Origin: a virus
Lineage: Duplodnaviria; Caudoviricetes
IMG/VR virus record: IMGVR_UViG_3300016486_001578
Length of the DNA stretch: 64,000 bases
Direction: 5' to 3' (one strand)
How positions within the stretch are numbered: position 1 is the first letter of the stretch; each line of letters starts with the position of its first letter. The position numbers were made by a program, and so were the translations under genes. Positions 6,162 through 57,200 of this stretch are shown here, one piece after another. Below the pieces are notes generated by a model, which was given only the letters and a program-made list of their open reading frames with translations, did not search any database and was not told the DNA's origin.

Positions 6162-6890
6162 ATGAATTTAAAAGAAGATTTTAAAAAATATGCCAAGAGT
6201 GAAGGCATTTCTACAACAATATTAGATAACCAAATAAACTCAATAGAAAATTCACTAACTCCATATATCTTAGAAGAAAGAGAGATGAGAATGACACAAA
6301 TGGATGTTTTTAGTAGATTATTAAGGGATAGAATCATATGGCTATCTGGACCAGTTAATAGTTATATGTGTGATGTTGTGCAAGCACAATTGATGTTTTT
6401 AGACTCTACCGAGAAAAAAGATATAACACTGCATATAAATACACCAGGTGGATCGGTTTTAAGTGGATTAGGGATAATTGATGTCATGAACTATATAGGT
6501 TCTGATATAAGAACGATAAACACTGGAATGGCAGCATCTATGGGTTCAGTTCTACTTTCATCCGGAACAAAGGGTAAAAGATCCTCATTATTATACTCTA
6601 AGGTAATGACTCATCAAGTATCTCATGGAACACAAGGAAATGTTCAAGATACTAGAATAAGTCAATTAGAAGCAGAAAAATATAACTTTATTTTATTTAA
6701 AATATTAGGTGAGAATTGTGGAAAAGATTATAAAGAAGTAATTGAATTTTCTAGAAGAGATAAATGGTATAATTCACAAGAAGCTTTAGACTTTGGGTTA
6801 ATTGATGAAGTTGTTAGTGAGTCAAGTATGTCAAATATATTAGAAGGATTTGATGAATATTATAAAGAAGAGGTGTTAATAAATGATTAA
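6162..6890 (+). CDS. clpP: ATP-dependent Clp protease proteolytic subunit
   Basis: MDVFSRLLRDRII, INTPGGS, AASMG (Ser), MTHQ (His), RRD (Asp), A.DFGLID. Confidence 0.95.
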   Translation: MNLKEDFKKYAKSEGISTTILDNQINSIENSLTPYILEEREMRMTQMDVFSRLLRDRIIWLSGPVNSYMCDVVQAQLMFLDSTEKKDITLHINTPGGSVLSGLGIIDVMNYIGSDIRTINTGMAASMGSVLLSSGTKGKRSSLLYSKVMTHQVSHGTQGNVQDTRISQLEAEKYNFILFKILGENCGKDYKEVIEFSRRDKWYNSQEALDFGLIDEVVSESSMSNILEGFDEYYKEEVLIND

Positions 6891-7253: not shown

Positions 7254-8343
7254 ATGTCAAATTGGAAAGTATCTAAAGAAAATATTGAGTTATTTGTTCA
7301 CACAAATGCTGATGGTCTAGATTTGGGCAAAGTTGGATCTTATCAAGTTGTCGTTCAGAAAGGACTTTATAATGATGGTGATGAAGTTATATTCGCACCT
7401 GAAAAATCTGTATTAAGTGGTCAAATAAAATTAGAATTTGAAAATTATTTGGCCGGACCAAATTAGAGACAGAGTAAAGGGAGTTAGGCTTAGGGGAGAA
7501 ATATCTTCTGGTATAATTATACCTAAACATTTAGTTCCGGATTTTGAAGATATAGAAGTTGGTGTTGATGTTTCTGAAATCTTGGGAATTCACAAATATG
7601 AACCACCAATTCCAGAGGAACTACTTGGCGATGTTAGTATAATTGAAATGAATAACATAGGAACTCATGATTGTGAGCAAGTCGGTATTTATATAAATGA
7701 TCTTATAAAGGGAGAAAGGGTTGTAATTTCTGAGAAATTACACGGAACTCAAATAGTAATGGTTCATAATATAGAAACTGATGAAACTATTTTATCATCA
7801 AAGGGTCTTTTAAAAACCGGATTATCAATAAATGAATCAGATTCCAATAAATATTGGATAGCCGCTAACAATGTTGATTTAGTAAATCTTATTAAATCAA
7901 ATTTTAAAAGTGGAGTTGTTCAAATTTTTGCCGAGCTTATACCAATTCAACCTGGTTATGGTTATGGACAAGAAGAACCAACTATTAGAATATTTGATAT
8001 AAGGTTAAATTCCGAATCAATTCCATATGACAAAGTACCGACAGATTTTTCCAAAATCTGGGTACCGATTATTTACGATGGTACTTTAAATCTCGAAGAG
8101 AAAGAGGTAATTCTTCATGAAGATGAAGAGAAAGGAATCCGTAAAGTTAAAATCAATAATGTCCTTCCAAAAGAGATTATTAGTTTTAGCAAAGGTATGG
8201 AATTGGTTTCTGGAAAAGGATTACACATCAAAGAAGGGGTTGTAATAAGTCCTTATATTGATAGGTTTGCTATGGATGGCACTAGATTGCGATTGAAAGT
8301 AATAAATCCAAAATACAAAGAGACTGGTGATGAAATAAATTAA
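7254..8343 (+). CDS. RNA ligase, DRB0094/Rnl2-like family (frameshift near 7460)
   Basis: N-terminal HTNAD.L...VVVQKG; EKLHG adenylation motif; FAE, FDI, EGVV and KVINPKY motifs; two overlapping ORFs. Confidence 0.85.
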
Positions 8344-14415: not shown

Positions 14416-14976
14416 TTGGAAAAAGAAAATAAAATCAATAAAGGGGAAAAGATAGCCAGAAAAATAAAAATAAAATCACCAATAACCATAATATTTTCAT
14501 TAATTTGTGTGGTAGCTTTTTTGTTAGGTAATCCAAATATGTTTATATTAGGATCTGGTAATGTATTTGGTGTTTTTCTTTGGATATTTGGACATAATGG
14601 TATAGAACACTTAATTGGTAATCTACTACCAATATTAATAATAGGTCCGGTATTAGAATCTAGATATAGTAAAAAAACACTAATATCATTAATAACACTA
14701 ACAACACTAACAACATCAATACTTCATTTATTTTTATTTCAAGACTCAGTAACTGGTGCTAGTGGCATATTATGTATGTTTGCAATACTAACGTTAATGG
14801 GTAAAGAAGATGGTGAGATACCACTTATGGCTGTGGTATTTACATTCTTTGTAATGGTATCACAAATATTATCAGGAGCACAGATGAATGGTATTTCCGA
14901 ATTTTCACACATAATTGGTATATTAATGGGATTTTTATTCGGATTAATAATAAAGAGAGATAAAGATTATATATAA
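14416..14976 (+). CDS. Rhomboid-family intramembrane serine protease
   Basis: H....HLIGN, GASG and SHIIG motifs; multiple TM helices. Confidence 0.85.
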   Translation: MEKENKINKGEKIARKIKIKSPITIIFSLICVVAFLLGNPNMFILGSGNVFGVFLWIFGHNGIEHLIGNLLPILIIGPVLESRYSKKTLISLITLTTLTTSILHLFLFQDSVTGASGILCMFAILTLMGKEDGEIPLMAVVFTFFVMVSQILSGAQMNGISEFSHIIGILMGFLFGLIIKRDKDYI

Positions 14977-14980
14977 TGAC

Positions 14981-15574
14981 ATGATGGATAGTTTGTTAAT
15001 AATGGTGTTTAGTGGTATAATAAATTGTACCACTTGTATAGGAATAGATATGACGGAATATAGAATGTTATATGACACATTATATCAAGTACCAGTGGTT
15101 ACAGTATACTCAATAAATGAGTCAGAAAAATTAGAAGTTGTAGAAAGAGGAAATTGGTTAGAGAGTGAGAAACACTTAGGCATAAATACACCAGACTACA
15201 ATGAACATTTCTATAAAACAGGATATGATAGAGGACATCTTGTTCCACTAGATAATATGAAATACTCTAAAGAAGCAATGAATAGAGCTTGTTTGGATAT
15301 AAATATGACAAAACAAAATGCTTCTTTTAATAGAGGTGTTTGGAGAGAGATAGAAGAAGATGTAACAGAGATAATAGATACCTCTGATTTTACAATAGTA
15401 GTCACTGGGGTGGTTTATAAGAGAGGAAATGAGCTACCACCTATACCGACACACTATTATAAAATAGTTTACTCTGGTGAGTGGATATATTGGTTATGTG
15501 AAAACAAAGCAGGACTTAGTGTTAATGGAAGTAGATGTGAATATGATGATATATTAGAACTTATAGAAAAATAA
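14981..15574 (+). CDS. DNA/RNA non-specific endonuclease
   Basis: YDRGHL, NMTKQ..SFNRGVWREIE, IPTHYYK. Confidence 0.9.
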   Translation: MMDSLLIMVFSGIINCTTCIGIDMTEYRMLYDTLYQVPVVTVYSINESEKLEVVERGNWLESEKHLGINTPDYNEHFYKTGYDRGHLVPLDNMKYSKEAMNRACLDINMTKQNASFNRGVWREIEEDVTEIIDTSDFTIVVTGVVYKRGNELPPIPTHYYKIVYSGEWIYWLCENKAGLSVNGSRCEYDDILELIEK

Positions 15575-31684: not shown

Positions 31685-32842
31685 ATGCTTAAATATATTA
31701 AATCGATAAGAGAGGAGCTCAGGATATCAGAAACCGATGAAAAGACATTGGAGATGATGAAAAAAAACCTACTTTTTAGATTAAGTGAATATAAAGGGTC
31801 TATATTAGACAATATACACTATAACCTAAAAACGAATAAAGTAGAATATAAACACTTTAACAAGCTTGATCTAAAAGTTATGTTTAGAGAGCTATATAAT
31901 GAATTAACAGAAGATTTTGTTAAAGACTTAAATATAGAAACCTTTCTTAGAAAAGTCAATCAAGTCATGTTACTGCAAAAAAGAAACACCAAAAGTAAAG
32001 TTAGGAGGATATTCGATGATTACATAAAATCAATTGATTCTAGGATAGAACAAATAAGAACCTCACCTAAACATGATGTTTATTTTGACGAATATGATGA
32101 TGATGGGGAGAAGTCCTTACTTGGTAGAAAGAAATATGAAATTGAAAAGTATAAAATACAAGTAGAATTATTAAAACTACAAGAGTGGGTTAAGAAAAAT
32201 AATAAAAAAGTGGCTATTGTTTTTGAAGGAAGAGATGCTGCCGGCAAAGGGTCAACCATTAAAAGATTCACAGAGTATCTTAATCCAAATGGATTTAATA
32301 TCGTAGCAATGGGCATCCCAACAGAAGAAGAAAAGAATAATTGGTTTGGTAGATACGAAAAACACCTACCAAAAGAAGGTGAAATAGTTTTCTTTGATAG
32401 AAGTTGGTATAACCGAGCAGTTGTTGAACCGGCTATGGGATATTGTACAGAAGAACAATATGAAGATTTTATGAATAATGTTATTAAATGGGAAGAAGAT
32501 CTAATAAGAAAGGATGTTATTTTAATTAAATTCTGGTTCTCTATAACAAAAGATAAGCAACTACAAAGATTTAATCTTAGAAAACAATCACCATTAAAAT
32601 ATTGGAAATTCTCACCAAATGATGCTAAGGTGTTAGACAAGTGGGAAGTTATTGGAAATTTTAAATTACAGATGTTTAACAAAACTTCTAGTAAGATGTC
32701 ACCTTGGGTTATAATAAATTCAAATGATAAGAAAATAGGAAGGTTAAACGCCATGAGGTATGTTATATCTAAGATAAATTATGAAGGTAGAGATGCAGAA
32801 GTAGGTAAATTCTACAAAGAAGTTGTTAATATTTTAAGCTAA
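31685..32842 (+). CDS. ppk2: Polyphosphate kinase 2 with N-terminal extension
   Basis: FEGRDAAGKGSTIKR Walker A, FFDRSWYNRAVVE, WKFSPND. Confidence 0.92.
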   Translation: MLKYIKSIREELRISETDEKTLEMMKKNLLFRLSEYKGSILDNIHYNLKTNKVEYKHFNKLDLKVMFRELYNELTEDFVKDLNIETFLRKVNQVMLLQKRNTKSKVRRIFDDYIKSIDSRIEQIRTSPKHDVYFDEYDDDGEKSLLGRKKYEIEKYKIQVELLKLQEWVKKNNKKVAIVFEGRDAAGKGSTIKRFTEYLNPNGFNIVAMGIPTEEEKNNWFGRYEKHLPKEGEIVFFDRSWYNRAVVEPAMGYCTEEQYEDFMNNVIKWEEDLIRKDVILIKFWFSITKDKQLQRFNLRKQSPLKYWKFSPNDAKVLDKWEVIGNFKLQMFNKTSSKMSPWVIINSNDKKIGRLNAMRYVISKINYEGRDAEVGKFYKEVVNILS

Positions 32843-37391: not shown

Positions 37392-38034
37392 TACTGTCAG
37401 TCACATGGTTTACTTCCTTTATAAAACGAATTATAGACTCAAAGGGAATAGATTTTATGTATAAATTTAACTTAGACCACGATAGGTATTTAAGAGTTGT
37501 TTACAGGATTAAAACTATTTTTTCTCCATATTTATAAACTTCATATAGTCCACTTATTTTATTTAATTTATATTTAAATCCATTATCTTTTAATTCTTTT
37601 AAGTAGCCTTTTAACATTTTCATAAATACAAAGATATGGAATTTTTTTAATATAATTTAAATTAATACATATCTTCGTAGTATTAAAATAAAAACATGAG
37701 AAAACAAATAGAAGGTGCAAAGATAAGCAAAAAACTATTTATTTTTATCATATTCCCAATAATAATCCTTTGATTCTCCTTTTTTGAAATATATCATAAT
37801 CATTCTATGTGTTTTTTTAACGAATTCCATGACCTCTTTTGTGTTATTAAATTTGAAAATTTCACCAGTTTCTTTTGATTTAGCTTTTATATTTCTATAT
37901 TTTATCTTTTTTTCTCTTAATTTTTTAATAACTTCTTGTCTTTTTCTCTTTTTCCTTTATTCCAAGGTTCTCTTCCTAAGTTTTTTGTCTAACTTTCTCT
38001 GAGACCTCCGGATTATGCATTGGATTATTTAACT

Positions 38035-38460
38035 TTAATCTTTCTGATATTTTTTCTTTGTGGATTCCTTTAAATGCTTCCCCCAATTTGGGTGTTCTTT
38101 GCCACAAAGAGTTACACCATCACCACCATCTGATATATTAGAGAGTGTTCCTTTATTAATAGAGCTTTTCCCAATTTTTTTAATTAGATATATCTCTTTA
38201 TCATAAGCGTCTTTTTCTTTCAAATTTTCATATAGCTTAATAGCTATCGGTTCTCTATTTTCTGATATAATTTTATTTATTTTTCGATAGAAATATGTTT
38301 GCTTTTTTAGATTTGATGGATACATATGGCTCTTTATTCGATTATTTTTGCCTTTTCCTATATAAAATGGTTCGTATAAAAAACAAAATCCTAATCCATC
38401 ATAAGAGTACGAGCCTCTTTTTTCTGGATCCATAAAAACATATACATAAAATTCCTCCAT
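38035..38460 (-). CDS. GIY-YIG homing endonuclease (C-terminus probably frameshifted)
   Basis: FYVY...PFYIGKGK..RI..H...E...I.......L.N...GG.G; NUMOD3-like HPNWGKH. Confidence 0.8.
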   Translation of the reverse strand: MEEFYVYVFMDPEKRGSYSYDGLGFCFLYEPFYIGKGKNNRIKSHMYPSNLKKQTYFYRKINKIISENREPIAIKLYENLKEKDAYDKEIYLIKKIGKSSINKGTLSNISDGGDGVTLCGKEHPNWGKHLKESTKKKYQKD

Positions 38461-38536: not shown

Positions 38537-40009
38537 ATGACAAAAGAAGATATTAAAAAAAGAATAGCTTCATTAAGGCACAAAGCATCACAGCTAAAAA
38601 AAGACGTTGACTATTATGACGCTCTCCAAAAAGCTCTGAAATTGGTACTTAATGGAAGCTATTTTTCGCCCCCACTCTTTTATTAGGGTGGGGGCAAAAT
38701 TTACGGAGCATTTGCAACGAAATACTTTATACTATTCAATAACCATGTGGCTGGTACAATAACTGCTGAGGGTAGGGAATTAACCAGAACCATGGATAAA
38801 GATAATGAAGATTATTGGTATGACCAATGGCACTTAGATTATGAAATTCATAAAAAGCTACATATAAAAAATGTAACGGAGATAGATAAGAAAGAACCAG
38901 TTAGTATTTATGGTGATACTGATTCTATTTTTGTATCATTCAAACCTGCTATGGATCATTGTGATTGGAAAGATCAAATATTTAATACTGATTATTTATC
39001 TTCAATTGATAAGAAATTTATAATTTTAAGCAAAAGAGATGATATAGACCAAATCGCATCTAATAAATCAAATTTAATAAAAATAGTTTCTGATATTTCT
39101 AAACTAAAAGAATCATTGTCATTAGAGCATGATATTATTTTAATAGATGGTAATTTTGTTAAAAATAGAGAGTTAAATACACTAATTGATGCTGGAGAAA
39201 TAAAATCCGAAATTATTTGGAATTGGTCATATGAAGCCGATTTCATACAAGGGGTTGATAAATTTAGATTCTCTGGCTTCTTTAAAAAGATGTTAGATGA
39301 ACATGCTGCTAAATATGGTGTAGAAAATAAAGAAGATTTCGAGCTTGAAAGAATATCCGAATCTATTATAAATATAGCAAAAAAGAAATATATTCAAAAT
39401 ATAGTACATGAAGATGGCATCGATTATGATAGACTTAGTTATATTTTCCCAAAGGGAGTTGAATTAGTTAGATCATCTACGCCACCATTTGCTCGTGAAA
39501 AAATTGTTGATATTGTTAAGTATTTATTCTCTCATCCAGATACCTTTAATACAAAAGACTTATTGAAATTAGTTAAGAATCTTAGAAAAGAATTCGAATT
39601 ATCAGATGTTGATGATATAGCTTTACAATCTTCTGTTTCTAACTATAATATAAAAGTATTAAATGATAAAAAGCTACCATTAGGTTTTGTTTCTGGTGCT
39701 CACTTTGCGGTTAAATCTGCGGCACATTATAACTATCTATTGGGATTAAACAACGAGTACCAACAAAAGTATGAGTTTATAAAGTCAGGTACTAAAATTA
39801 AATACTTTGTTTGTAAAGATAAATCAATAACTGATATGTTTGCTTATATACGTGGGTCCTTTCCAATTGAGTTTGCTCCAGAGATAGATTATGATATACA
39901 ATTTGATAAATCTATTTTATCACCAATAAACTCAATTATTGAGCCTCTTGGTCTTCCTAAGATAACTGCTAGATTAAAGGTTGTTATGGATATATGGTCT
40001 GGGTTTTAG
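38537..40009 (+). CDS. Family B DNA polymerase, C-terminal subunit of a split polymerase, interrupted by a 42-nt insert
   Basis: ATG 38537 is in frame with ORF 38747; QKALKLVLNGS|YGAF motif B, YGDTDS motif C, KKKY, KGVELVRSSTP. Confidence 0.85.
38660..38701 (+). other. 42-nt hairpin insert with in-frame TAG inside polymerase motif B
   Basis: GCCCCCACTCT(38668-78)-TTTATT-AGGGTGGGGGC(38685-95); flanked by TAT and TAC Tyr codons. Confidence 0.8.
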
Positions 40010-52493: not shown

Positions 52494-54203
52494 TTAACCA
52501 ACCCATTCCCATTTCTTTAAACCACAATCCCATATTCTATAAGAATTTATTTCATTGTACATTATCTCTCTTTCTGATTTGTTTTTATCATAGCCCATTT
52601 TTATTAGTCTAGATTTTCTATATTTAGATTTATGAACACGCTCATTACCAATGACCCATTTATAGTTTACATCTGATATACCAACCATATTAAATCCTAA
52701 TTTTTCATATAGTCCACCATTAAATAATGATAAATCCGAATAGGAAATTATTTTAGATGTGTTGTTATTTCTTATGAAATGTTTTAGAAGCCTAGATGAT
52801 CCACCAATTACACTAGTATTTAAAATATTTGAAAACCTCGAAAGCTCATATGAATCACACCCCACCTCTTCTCTATTCTTACCAAAGCACATCAAGCTAA
52901 CCAATTCATTATTATAATATAAGCCAATTTTTATTTTAGACTTATTATCACCTTGTATATGATTTTTATTTAAAAATTTACTGGATTCCTCTTTCTTAAC
53001 TTCTCTAATCTCGCACTTTCTAGCGTATATTTTGTTTTCGATTTTATGTAGTTTGTTTTTTATTATTGATTTTACTATATCATTTTTTAACTTCCAATCA
53101 TCCTCCCATATATGTATTAGTTCAATTCCAATCGATTCACATAATTTTGTCTTTTTTATATGGTAATTTTTGTCTTTATTTAACTCTGAGTGCCAATATA
53201 ACCCATTGAATTCAAATGCTAGATTAATATCAGGTAAATAAATATCTAATTCTTTACCATTTAATAATTTTCTATCCGATCTTATTATCTCATCATTATA
53301 TATCTCATTTATAAAATTAAACAAGGAAACTTCTTGACCAGATATGTGTTTTTTTAATGGGTTACAATTTGTGCATATAATAGTTTCTTGTTTGTGTCTT
53401 ATTTGTAGATGCTCTCTATGTATTTTGAATTCACTTTGACAATCATTACATTTAAATTTAATTTTCCTATTTTCATAATTTATATCAATTAAATCTATAT
53501 TAATATTATCTATTTTTAGAAGAACACTCTCATATAATGAATTTTCTTTTGATATTTTTGTTTTAATTGTGCCCTTTTTATGTATTTCTTTGTTGCTCCA
53601 AGGGTGGTGATATCCATACCTTTCAAGTGAAGTTTTTTTATAACTTTTATTCCATGATTCTATATTCATCTTAAATGATTCTATTCTTTTATTTATTATT
53701 TCATCAACCTGATTAACATTATCCACTCCATATTTCTCCTTTACAGTATTTAATCTTTTATCCTTTATCTTCTGTTTTTCTACCTTTGTCCTATTTTGAT
53801 ATTTTTTTGATATTTTTTTCTTTATATCCTTATTCATGGAAGCATGTTTATCTCCATATTTTAATATATTTGAATCTTCTTTCTTTTTCTTTATTTTAGG
53901 ATCTAAACCAACACACCTATTTGAGCAGTAATTAAGATAGCCAATTTTTGAGTTCTTAAATTTGACTTTTTTTTCACAAAAGTCATTTTTACACAAAACG
54001 ATACTATTTATATTACTATAACATAGATATACTTTTTCTTTGAATGTCAGTTCGTCTATTAATGAATAACCATCTATTATATACTTATAATCATTTTTAA
54101 AATTATTTAACACATATTTTTCGGAAGACATTTTTCCGGATTTATTATTGAACTTATATTCTTCTATAAATTTATCACTTAACATAGTTTGATATTTTAA
54201 CAT
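52494..54203 (-). CDS. Putative Hef-like homing endonuclease with KYG repeats
   Basis: YCSNRC; KYG..N repeats; ELDIYLPDINLAFEFNGLYWH nuclease motif; IHIWEDDW; ARKC; WDCG. Confidence 0.75.
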   Translation of the reverse strand: MLKYQTMLSDKFIEEYKFNNKSGKMSSEKYVLNNFKNDYKYIIDGYSLIDELTFKEKVYLCYSNINSIVLCKNDFCEKKVKFKNSKIGYLNYCSNRCVGLDPKIKKKKEDSNILKYGDKHASMNKDIKKKISKKYQNRTKVEKQKIKDKRLNTVKEKYGVDNVNQVDEIINKRIESFKMNIESWNKSYKKTSLERYGYHHPWSNKEIHKKGTIKTKISKENSLYESVLLKIDNINIDLIDINYENRKIKFKCNDCQSEFKIHREHLQIRHKQETIICTNCNPLKKHISGQEVSLFNFINEIYNDEIIRSDRKLLNGKELDIYLPDINLAFEFNGLYWHSELNKDKNYHIKKTKLCESIGIELIHIWEDDWKLKNDIVKSIIKNKLHKIENKIYARKCEIREVKKEESSKFLNKNHIQGDNKSKIKIGLYYNNELVSLMCFGKNREEVGCDSYELSRFSNILNTSVIGGSSRLLKHFIRNNNTSKIISYSDLSLFNGGLYEKLGFNMVGISDVNYKWVIGNERVHKSKYRKSRLIKMGYDKNKSEREIMYNEINSYRIWDCGLKKWEWVG

Positions 54204-54277: not shown

Positions 54278-57200
54278 TTATCCGTTTATAAATCCACCGG
54301 CTGATATAGCCCCAGTTCTAAGTATTGTGATATTATTAACGATAATACCCATACCGCGTATGGGTTCAACATAAGTATCAAGAACACCAATTTGGTTATC
54401 TATAATCTCAGATGTATTATTTTCATCATCCATTTTATTGAAGTAATTATATAATCCATTTTTACTTACATATGTTTCACAAATAACATCAGCTCTAAGT
54501 TTTATCTCAGCTCTAACATCAGGTGTGTTAAATTTCCATTGATAATCTAACAACATTCTTGATAATTCTCTTTCTAGTTCAATAAGAACTTCTCTTACGT
54601 GAATATAAGAAAGTGCTGATGAATAAAGAACTTGTCCAGTATTCTCTGTTTCGATTATATATCCTCTATTTCTTTTGAATACAATAGGATTCATTTGAGC
54701 TAGATTTAAATTCTCTATATCAGATGGTGAATAATCCATTTCCAATCCAGCGATATTAGTAATTCTACCATTTGTAACACCCGCTGCAATAGTCCAAGGA
54801 GTAATTGCAGTAACATTTGAGATATGTTTTCTCATGTATGTTGTAGCGGCATAAGACGCTGGCGGCATATCCAATGGTCTTCCATTATCATTCACTGTTA
54901 AGTAAGGTGTGAAATATCCAACTGTTGTTGTTCCGGCTCCCTCTCCAAATGAGTAAAGGAAAGCTGGGTTACTTTCTGGGTCACCACCTTGGCCTATGAA
55001 TGAAGTTTGTAATGTTCCCTCACTATCTACAAAAGATGGTGATGATGAATTTTTGAAACTTCTCAACGAAGGCATATTTATGAACCCAAAGGCATCTAAT
55101 CTATCTCCACAGATATCTACCAATTGTTGTTTAGATCTTTCAACCAAACCAAGTCCAAATGAATCAATTAAGTATCTGAAATCAATGGCTTCTTTGTTAG
55201 TAAGAGCTTTGAACATTGGTGTTCCTTTAGCTACTAAGTTTAAGATTTGATTTTGTCTATCTTCTGTACCATCTGGTAATGAATTTCCTCTTACTTTAAA
55301 ACCTTTAAGTGATAGAGCCTTGTATGTAGTAGCATAATTATCTATTCCAACATATCTCATTGATTGTAAATCATCTGTACCATAAGTATAAACTTTTATT
55401 CTTGAATCACAAGTTATCTCAGATAATGATGTGTCTCCTGAATATTGTCTTTTGCTTAGTATTCTAGTAAGTTTCCTCGCAACTTGACCAGCTTCTAAAA
55501 CAACATCTGTATCAACATATGCTTCAAGGAAGTCACCGATTTTTACTTCAGTATATCTATCAGCTTTTACTAAAACTTTGTTGTTTTCTCTAACATAACC
55601 ACTTGGCACTTCTATCTCAAGTGATTGTTTAAGGTTAGATTTTGATGATTGTATAAATATTGTATTATTCGCTGTTGTGTTTATAGAATTTGTGGCTTCT
55701 AGTAATTCATCAGTGAAGTTTACTATCATATCACCATCATTTTCTATATACATTTTAAGGTATATTAAATCAGAATAATCATATACTAAATCAACATCAA
55801 ATAAATCTTCTGCAACTACTTCTTCGTTAACTTGGTAGGCATAAAAATCACCACCCGTATATCCAAGTGCAATAGCTAATAATGAAGGACTTAATGATGT
55901 TACCTCATCTGTCATTATTGTGAATGTTCCTGGGTTATTTAATGAACTAGGAACTAAAATTTGTTCTCCCGTTTGTAGAGCCATCTCTGAACTAACTGTA
56001 TCGGTTGATCCAAAAACTACATAGTCATACCCAGCATAAGAGAAAGTTGGACTACCATTTGGTGAGTCTTCGCCATCTACAAATGTTATTGTAACTGTTT
56101 CTCCTAATAAGGCATTAGTGGTTCCAGTTGAATCAACATATAGTCTATTTGTATTAAATGTATCTTTTGTATTTATTATTCCATCATAGAACCTACTATA
56201 TAATAAGGAGTCTTTGGCAACAACCCCCATACCACTTAGATCAGCAGTATTATTTGTTGTTTCTAATCCATCTTCTCCGAATATTATTTCATTATCAACT
56301 GTATATATAACTAAGTAACCATCAACAACATCTACTAAATCCGATGATGTTAATGTTGTTTGTAATTCGAATGATTTATTTTCGAATGTAGAAGTTACTA
56401 TGTTTGATATAGAAGCATCTTCTAATCTATATTTTATAGAATAATTTGTTGGTCCTAAGTTCATAGCCATTTTATCTAAGTTGGCACTATCTAATAAATT
56501 AACTAATCTATTAAAAAGTTTAAATCTTCTATATTGTTTATAATTCTTAACATCAGGTGTTGTGTTTGTTCCTAAGAATTCAAATGTTAGTTTACCACTA
56601 CTATTATCTGATATCCTTAAATCAGTTCCTAATACCAAATCCACATAACCAATATCACTCATTGATACTTCTACTGGTGTAACACTAGATGTTGCGAAAT
56701 AACCAGCTGGCGTAACATCAAAATCTACGTAACTCAAAACGATATCCGTTGATAATACACTAGGTGAATCACCAGCGGTGAATGATTTATTTAACTTTAT
56801 CTCACCATCATCTCCTAATATAAGAGCCACTTTATAAGAAGCGGTTGCTGATGTTGTTGGATAATCTGTATTATTAATAGATACTGAAACAGTACCAGGA
56901 GCTATATCTATTTTTTCATCACCAATTATGGTAAAAGAACCCTCATCTACGACATGGCTAACACCTATTGTTGTTCCACTTATTATAACAGACCCAACAT
57001 CTAAATTAACTCCATATATAGAGTTCTCAGAGAACCAAGCCGTTCTATTGTCAAAAAGTACAACTCCATCATCATCAAGTGTGCTAGTAGTTAAATCACC
57101 ACCATAAGCGTGTTTTTCTTGTCCTGTATATGAAAATCCGGAAGATGTGTTACCAAGAAATGATGTAACATTACCAGGCAAATCTAAAGGAGTTGCTGTT

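Follow-up and report, generated by a model that had tools for sequence, protein, structure and literature searches.

A 42-nucleotide hairpin insert in motif B of a huge-phage DNA polymerase gene, a probable translational bypass element carried by a mobile nuclease cassette

In the phage DNA analyzed here, motif B of a family B DNA polymerase gene is interrupted by a 42-nucleotide (nt) hairpin insert with an in-frame stop codon. This DNA, hereafter called the window, is the whole 64,000-nt stretch of the Caudoviricetes record IMGVR_UViG_3300016486_001578 (IMG/VR) and is A+T-rich, with 27% G+C and a range of 26 to 33%. For an active polymerase to be made the insert must be skipped, and these 42 nt are probably a translational bypass element carried by a mobile nuclease cassette. 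Comparison with related phages favors a hop of the ribosome from the first TAT codon (position 38660) to a TAC codon (position 38702).

Anatomy of the insert in the window

On the plus strand, ATG 38537 opens a frame of 49 codons that stops at TAG 38684 to 38686, and the same frame resumes at TAC 38702 to give a 420-codon polymerase open reading frame (ORF) that ends at 40009 and matches PF00136, the family B polymerase domain (E 9e-13). The closest database relatives of the window phage were LR745206 and LR756502, uncultured huge phages of 635 and 642 kilobases (kb). Alignment with both revealed exactly 42 extra bases in the window (38663 to 38704, comprising the coding gap and the landing codon), located between the Ser-Tyr and Gly-Ala-Phe codons of motif B. 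With these bases left out, the polymerase C-terminal gene consists of a first coding segment of 42 codons (38537 to 38662), running from the fingers helix to the motif B Tyr, and a second one (38705 to 40009) with the rest of motif B, motif C, the thumb, and the PF00136 match. Intact relatives begin at the same Met as ATG 38537.

The hairpin (38668 to 38695, plus strand) has an 11-bp stem with a C5/G5 core, formed by positions 38668 to 38678 with 38685 to 38695, and a 6-nt loop; the 81-nt stretch that was folded reached -27.1 kcal/mol, with a z-score of -3.97 and none of 200 shuffles as stable. It is the sole C-run/G-run hairpin within the window, according to a C-run/G-run scan that was used in place of a G+C-island scan, which had overlooked the hairpin because its loop is A+T-rich. 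The proposed take-off codon is the TAT of the motif B Tyr (38660 to 38662), from which the C-run is 6 nt away, a spacing found in 79 of 82 relatives. Ribosomes entering the insert would read TTT, a rare TCG (2.95 per 1000 codons), and a rare CCC (1.1 per 1000), and would meet their first in-frame stop only at the eighth codon, the TAG at 38684 to 38686, which straddles the loop and the 3' arm and is directly preceded by a second TAT (38681 to 38683). The G-run ends 7 nt before TAC, with 6 nt of the gap being A or U only (spacer, 38696 to 38701), and the proposed landing codon TAC (38702 to 38704) is synonymous with the take-off TAT, which is the matched-codon pattern of the family.

The original prediction, made from the letters alone, had described a 42-nt hairpin insert with an in-frame TAG in motif B, an 11-bp G+C stem, the TAG at the loop edge, and the second TAT before it, and the reading frames, the fold, and the alignment to the two relatives lacking the 42 nt confirm all of these points. 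Its view that an active polymerase requires the insert to be hopped over by the ribosome or excised from the RNA is supported by the comparison with relatives; the alignment of homologous polB genes, which it had put forward as a check, found the insert absent from the two huge phages and present in varied form as 82 distinct inserts elsewhere. The second TAT, which it had raised as a take-off site, did not hold up, as relatives are without it and the fixed geometry of the family leaves exactly 6 nt between take-off and the C-run. The codon immediately preceding the stop was likewise rejected as a take-off site for the family, since its identity is unconstrained and no downstream codon matches it. 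The prediction had also allowed for a degenerate intron remnant or a collapsed assembly of a larger intron, neither of which gained support: a search of the insert against Rfam gave no match better than E 0.33, the 82 distinct inserts are all 36 to 48 nt long, and self-splicing group I and II introns have a core of hundreds of nucleotides, the whole insert being 42 nt. An assembly artefact is excluded because homologous inserts occur in more than 100 independent assemblies.

Phages of this clade encode their family B polymerase in separate, distant genes, and the window lacks the one for the exonuclease part; in LR745206, this part (L103, 233286 to 233612) is ∼100 kb from the C-terminal gene. 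In the IMG/VR contig of locus L276 (G002), the C-terminal match at 365417 to 366436 falls into two pieces, corresponding to query residues 1 to 78 and 160 to 420, and the variable region after motif C is strongly divergent or carries a further insertion.

Inserts, selection, and nuclease genes in related phages

Megablast of the window against phage records gave no match, a first search for related loci returned only relatives of 33 to 44% identity, and the 49-residue peptide as a query retrieved only three proteins. The second coding segment shares 70 to 81% identity with hundreds of relatives. Among the 120 best protein relatives examined, the N-terminus of ∼35 was truncated at motif B or immediately before it, and nine contigs of such relatives contained hairpin inserts that differed in sequence, length, and frame and occurred at three nearby codons. 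A scan for a pattern in which the conserved downstream codons come after a C5...G5 hairpin yielded 110 metagenome contigs and 38 IMG/VR contigs, from which one locus (L115) was dropped as a chance match in G+C-rich DNA. Removal of duplicates left 82 distinct inserts in the same gene of related huge phages. An exact-stem scan of IMG/VR gave 12 matches, in contigs outside the later polymerase-scan set.

Deleting one 36- to 48-nt stretch restored motif B in all 82 cases. The inserts occupy five sites within a ten-codon stretch (after Ala, Leu, Val, Ser, and Tyr), and their lengths modulo three are spread evenly (26, 28, and 28), so the inserts are not read through. The distance from the codon boundary to the C5 run is exactly 6 nt in 79 of 82 inserts, and this 6-nt spacer holds a stop codon in the upstream frame in 69 of 82 (TAG in 30, TAA in 28, and TGA in 11), compared with 0 and 7 of 82 in the other two frames. 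The stem measures 10 to 16 bp, with GNRA or UNCG tetraloops in 30 of 54 cases, and the spacer after the G5 run is 5 to 8 nt long in 67 of 82 and A-rich (53% A overall). Moreover, in 70 of 82 inserts the last codon agrees with the codon before the insert in at least its first two bases, compared with at most 2 of 82 at control positions shifted by 1 to 6 nt. All 40 Tyr-site inserts follow a Tyr codon, and in a lineage with a Leu-to-Phe change, the Phe codons TTT or TTC stand at both take-off and landing. Features are thus tied to the reading frame, as a translational mechanism predicts.

A pair of inserts separated by five or six codons occurs in each of three contigs, L134 at the Val and Tyr sites and L166 and L216 at the Leu and Tyr sites, and these relatives would require two successive skips; alternatively, the ATG that closes the first insert of L166 could act as a restart site. 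At the Leu site (L110, L120, L127, and others), the 3' spacer mostly ends in ATGA, which together with the landing codons resembles the first nine bases of the gene (Met-Thr-Lys), out of frame, and which puts TGA directly before the landing codon in 14 of 28 inserts.

The hairpin has been conserved as a structure. Over the 82 aligned inserts, 94.3% of cells are paired, compared with 74.8% in shuffles, compensatory changes occur in 7 of the 11 stem pairs, and the covariation score of 0.476 (0.137 in shuffles) was reached by none of 500 shuffles and by no slid control. G-U pairs (∼44 cells) are far more frequent than A-C (∼5), which argues that the sense strand is the selected form and points to selection on the hairpin as sense-strand RNA rather than as a DNA cruciform or antisense RNA. 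The gene around it is under purifying selection as well. In silico deletion of the insert left all 65 complete genes with open frames of 438 to 502 codons, and the ratio of nonsynonymous to synonymous substitution rates (dN/dS) was 0.126 in interrupted genes versus 0.101 in intact genes, with 0.12 in the segment before the insert and 0.087 in the 14 codons directly after it. In the sequences read from relatives, these 14 codons contain no standard start codon, so only ribosomes already translating from upstream can reach them. The gene was found once in each of two interrupted genomes of 98% completeness that were checked for second copies. These values indicate that the interrupted polymerase genes are functional and have no back-up copy.

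The inserts are linked to nuclease genes. Of 80 interrupted loci, 55 have a homing-endonuclease-like gene directly upstream, in divergent orientation, compared with none of 11 intact loci (Fisher test, 1.3e-5, uncorrected for ancestry), and over the loci this gene is of the DUF7487 type (PHROG homing endonuclease families), the GIY-YIG type, or the phrog_3339 type, with the insert site tracking the nuclease lineage. The inserts are also mobile: the polymerase tree requires at least 25 changes of insert state, and some polymerase genes that are nearly identical have different insert states, the breakpoint between them coinciding with the insert. For instance, L118 and L269 share 75% identity before the insert and 97 to 98% after it; DNA before the insert is far more diverged than DNA after it, a pattern characteristic of co-conversion in homing. 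The divergent neighbor of the polymerase gene in the window is a GIY-YIG homing endonuclease gene on the minus strand (37735 to 38460; PF22945, phrog_314), which aligns along the full length of relatives of 254 to 264 amino acids, with stops and a shifted middle part. Its two frameshifts lie around 37961 to 38092, and the C-terminal DNA-binding part retains 57% identity to intact relatives, so that the gene looks like a recently decayed copy.

Further homing-endonuclease-like genes of the phrog_3339/HNH type and of the DUF7487 type are found on the minus strand of the window at 52494 to 54203 and 1 to 780, one of them adjoining the tail sheath gene (54278 to 57181). The window also encodes a ClpP protease (6162 to 6890), a rhomboid protease (14416 to 14976), a non-specific endonuclease (14981 to 15574), and a polyphosphate kinase 2 (31685 to 32842).

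Proposed mechanism and competing explanations

We propose that a ribosome translating the polymerase C-terminal gene would pause with peptidyl-tRNA-Tyr at TAT 38660 to 38662, where the stable hairpin two codons downstream would block normal decoding. The ribosome would then pass the folded hairpin without peptide-bond formation, the tRNA would re-pair at TAC 38702 to 38704, and decoding would restart at GGA 38705 to give an uninterrupted motif B. The G-run of the 3' arm and the ∼6-nt A/U spacer may help to position landing, as does the mini Shine-Dalgarno of T4, and ribosomes failing take-off would reach the rare codons and then the stop. The mobile cassette would comprise the hairpin together with the homing endonuclease gene and the 126 nt at the start of the polymerase gene, and the insert probably splits the target of the nuclease itself in motif B DNA, such that carrier genomes would be protected. 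We infer both this mechanism and the protection of the carrier by a split nuclease target; the anatomy of the insert, its conservation, the requirement that it be skipped, its association with the nuclease gene, and its mobility are seen in the data themselves.

Several observations weigh against a bypass element of this kind. The window copy belongs to the minority without a stop two codons after take-off, having TCG in place of the lost stop, and its A-site codon after take-off (TTT) is a common one. Even where present, the stop of the polymerase family usually lies two codons after take-off, one codon later than in gene 60 of T4. At the Tyr site the landing codon is a poor match (e.g., AAC or AAA) in 11 of 40 inserts and TAA in 13 of 40, which may mean that re-pairing contributes less to landing than it does in T4. 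A 3-nt target duplication is a conceivable origin of the matched codons, and the family counts treat inserts and loci as independent, ignoring kinship. In addition, the G-run would be inoperative as proposed if the host is of a Bacteroidota type without Shine-Dalgarno pairing.

The alternative that survives best is RNA excision, in which a mini-intron of ∼40 nt, defined by its structure, would be cut out by a nuclease and the transcript resealed by an RNA ligase. Such a process would meet the need to remove the insert somehow and would account for a structure kept as sense RNA and for landing codons that mismatch the take-off codon. Furthermore, the phage does encode an RNA ligase, as the original prediction had stated (7438 to 8343, PF09414), and early in-frame stops occur in phage group I introns too. 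Opposed to this, neither junction has a conserved sequence, and the G-run lies anywhere from 6 to 17 nt from the 3' junction, yet the junction follows the matched codon. All five sites fall at codon boundaries, the stops are frame specific, and Rfam holds no known RNA family like the insert. We know of no such mRNA splicing in bacteria or phages, and we regard excision as unlikely; if it is true, the insert would be a protein-processed mini-intron, new for the mRNA of bacterial viruses.

Another possibility is a further split of the gene, in which translation would stop in the insert and restart downstream to give a small peptide and a truncated polymerase fragment that assemble. The polymerase of this clade already resides in distant genes, an in-frame ATT precedes TAC in the window, and gene callers begin the downstream ORF at a Val or Met after motif B. 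Nevertheless, such a cut would separate the Tyr from the Gly of the essential motif B, and the relatives read show TAA directly before the Gly codon and no standard start before the 14 conserved codons, the dN/dS of which (0.087) indicates strong purifying selection. A split fails because the codons after the insert are conserved in relatives that have no start codon there, and we consider it very improbable.

It is also extremely unlikely that the gene is a dead or dispensable copy or that the insert is a tolerated in-frame insertion of 14 residues with read-through of TAG. The window insert, taken alone, would fit the latter, being a multiple of three with a single TAG. Read-through of TAG fails because the inserts of relatives fall in all three frames (including lengths of 3n+1 and 3n+2) and use all three stops, TAA and TGA among them; TAG is also the stop codon of 7 of 32 long ORFs there, and no tRNA suppressing it was detected, which speaks against reassignment. 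A dead gene fails because of its dN/dS, which resembles that of intact genes, and its single copy in near-complete genomes. Finally, chance landing of a terminator or of a dispersed mobile repeat, such as a miniature inverted-repeat transposable element (MITE), a repetitive extragenic palindrome (REP), or a GC cluster of the yeast mitochondrial type, would agree with a G+C hairpin in an A+T-rich genome and a 2- to 3-nt flanking repeat and is of almost negligible probability because of copy number and flanks: no other C5...G5 hairpin was found in 887 kb of fetched loci or in two genomes with an intact gene, the interrupted genomes of 483 and 465 kb hold only the polymerase hairpin and, in the latter, one ordinary terminator between convergent genes, the many copies at many sites typical of MITEs, REPs, GC clusters, and byps are thus not seen, and no T-run follows the stem on either strand, the flank being A-rich on the plus strand and GAAAAATA on the minus strand.

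Relation to known systems

For three decades, phage translational bypassing has meant gene 60 of T4 and its homologues in topoisomerase genes, and we found no description in the literature of bypass-like hairpin inserts in phage polymerase genes. If the bypass interpretation is true, the inserts described here form an independent bypass family that is non-homologous to gene 60, and more than 80 natural variants at five positions, differing in spacer, stop position, loop type, landing codon, and gap length, make the rules of take-off and landing testable. This would suggest that mobile elements invading the most conserved DNA of essential genes have repeatedly combined a nuclease gene with a bypass insert. 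The truncated calls that gene callers make for interrupted polymerase genes, starting after motif B, also have consequences for huge-phage annotation and for polB as a marker gene.

Gene 60 cassettes combine a pair of take-off and landing codons with a stem-loop capped by a stable tetraloop, a G-rich triplet that precedes landing by 5 to 7 nt and an A/U-rich spacer, and a linked nuclease gene, which may have decayed, disappeared, or been exchanged, and a survey of them reported cassettes only in topoisomerase genes and never mentioned polymerase (Manning and Atkins, bioRxiv 10.1101/2022.08.31.505936). The polymerase inserts resemble T4 gene 60 with its MobA element (Huang 1988, Bonocora 2011) in having an untranslated gap ∼40 to 46 codons into a split replication gene. 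In both, the codons for take-off and landing are matched or synonymous, so that one tRNA can read them (TAT and TAC in the window; agreement in at least the first two bases in 70 of 82 relatives), and there is a stable stem-loop, often with a UUCG or GNRA cap, that is seen in the fold of the window and in the covariation over 82 inserts. They also share a G-rich triplet 5 to 8 nt before landing, by sequence a putative mini Shine-Dalgarno, with an A/U-rich spacer (the window and 67 of 82). In most of the family a stop also lies at the start of the gap, 69 of 82 having a frame-0 stop within two codons, and the window has one only at the eighth codon. Further likenesses are repeated insertion and loss and an adjacent homing endonuclease gene that is often decayed, lost, or replaced by another family, the frameshifted GIY-YIG gene of the window resembling the decayed mobA of T4.

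Unlike gene 60, the host gene is not a topoisomerase gene but a family B polymerase gene, at motif B, the inserts have no sequence similarity to the gene 60 cassette, and they pair with DUF7487-type and GIY-YIG nucleases in place of the HNH nuclease MobA, which places them outside the MobA/gene 60 family. Their gap of 36 to 48 nt consists almost entirely of one 10- to 16-bp C5/G5 hairpin, whose core begins exactly 6 nt after take-off, whereas the gap of gene 60 measures 50 nt, and they occupy five sites as opposed to one site, plus or minus one codon. In addition, the split of the polymerase gene is older than the cassette, and bypassing in the polymerase family is predicted.

Two other systems are also comparable. 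The byp elements of Magnusiomyces capitatus mitochondria are reportedly G+C-rich hairpin inserts of 27 to 55 nt in coding regions of an A+T-rich genome, are said to be skipped by ribosomes, and reportedly often have matching take-off and landing codons. The polymerase inserts share with them the short G+C-rich hairpin in a coding region of an A+T-rich genome; byps occur in many copies per genome and in many genes, whereas the polymerase inserts are confined to one site region of one gene and tied to a homing endonuclease gene. Free-standing homing endonucleases that split phage genes, such as those of T4 mobE/nrdB and Aeh1 gp43A/B, require no recoding. The phages described here resemble them in the nuclease beside a conserved replication gene, the co-conversion of flanks, and the split polymerase and differ from them in that the polymerase family carries its stop-containing insert inside the ORF.
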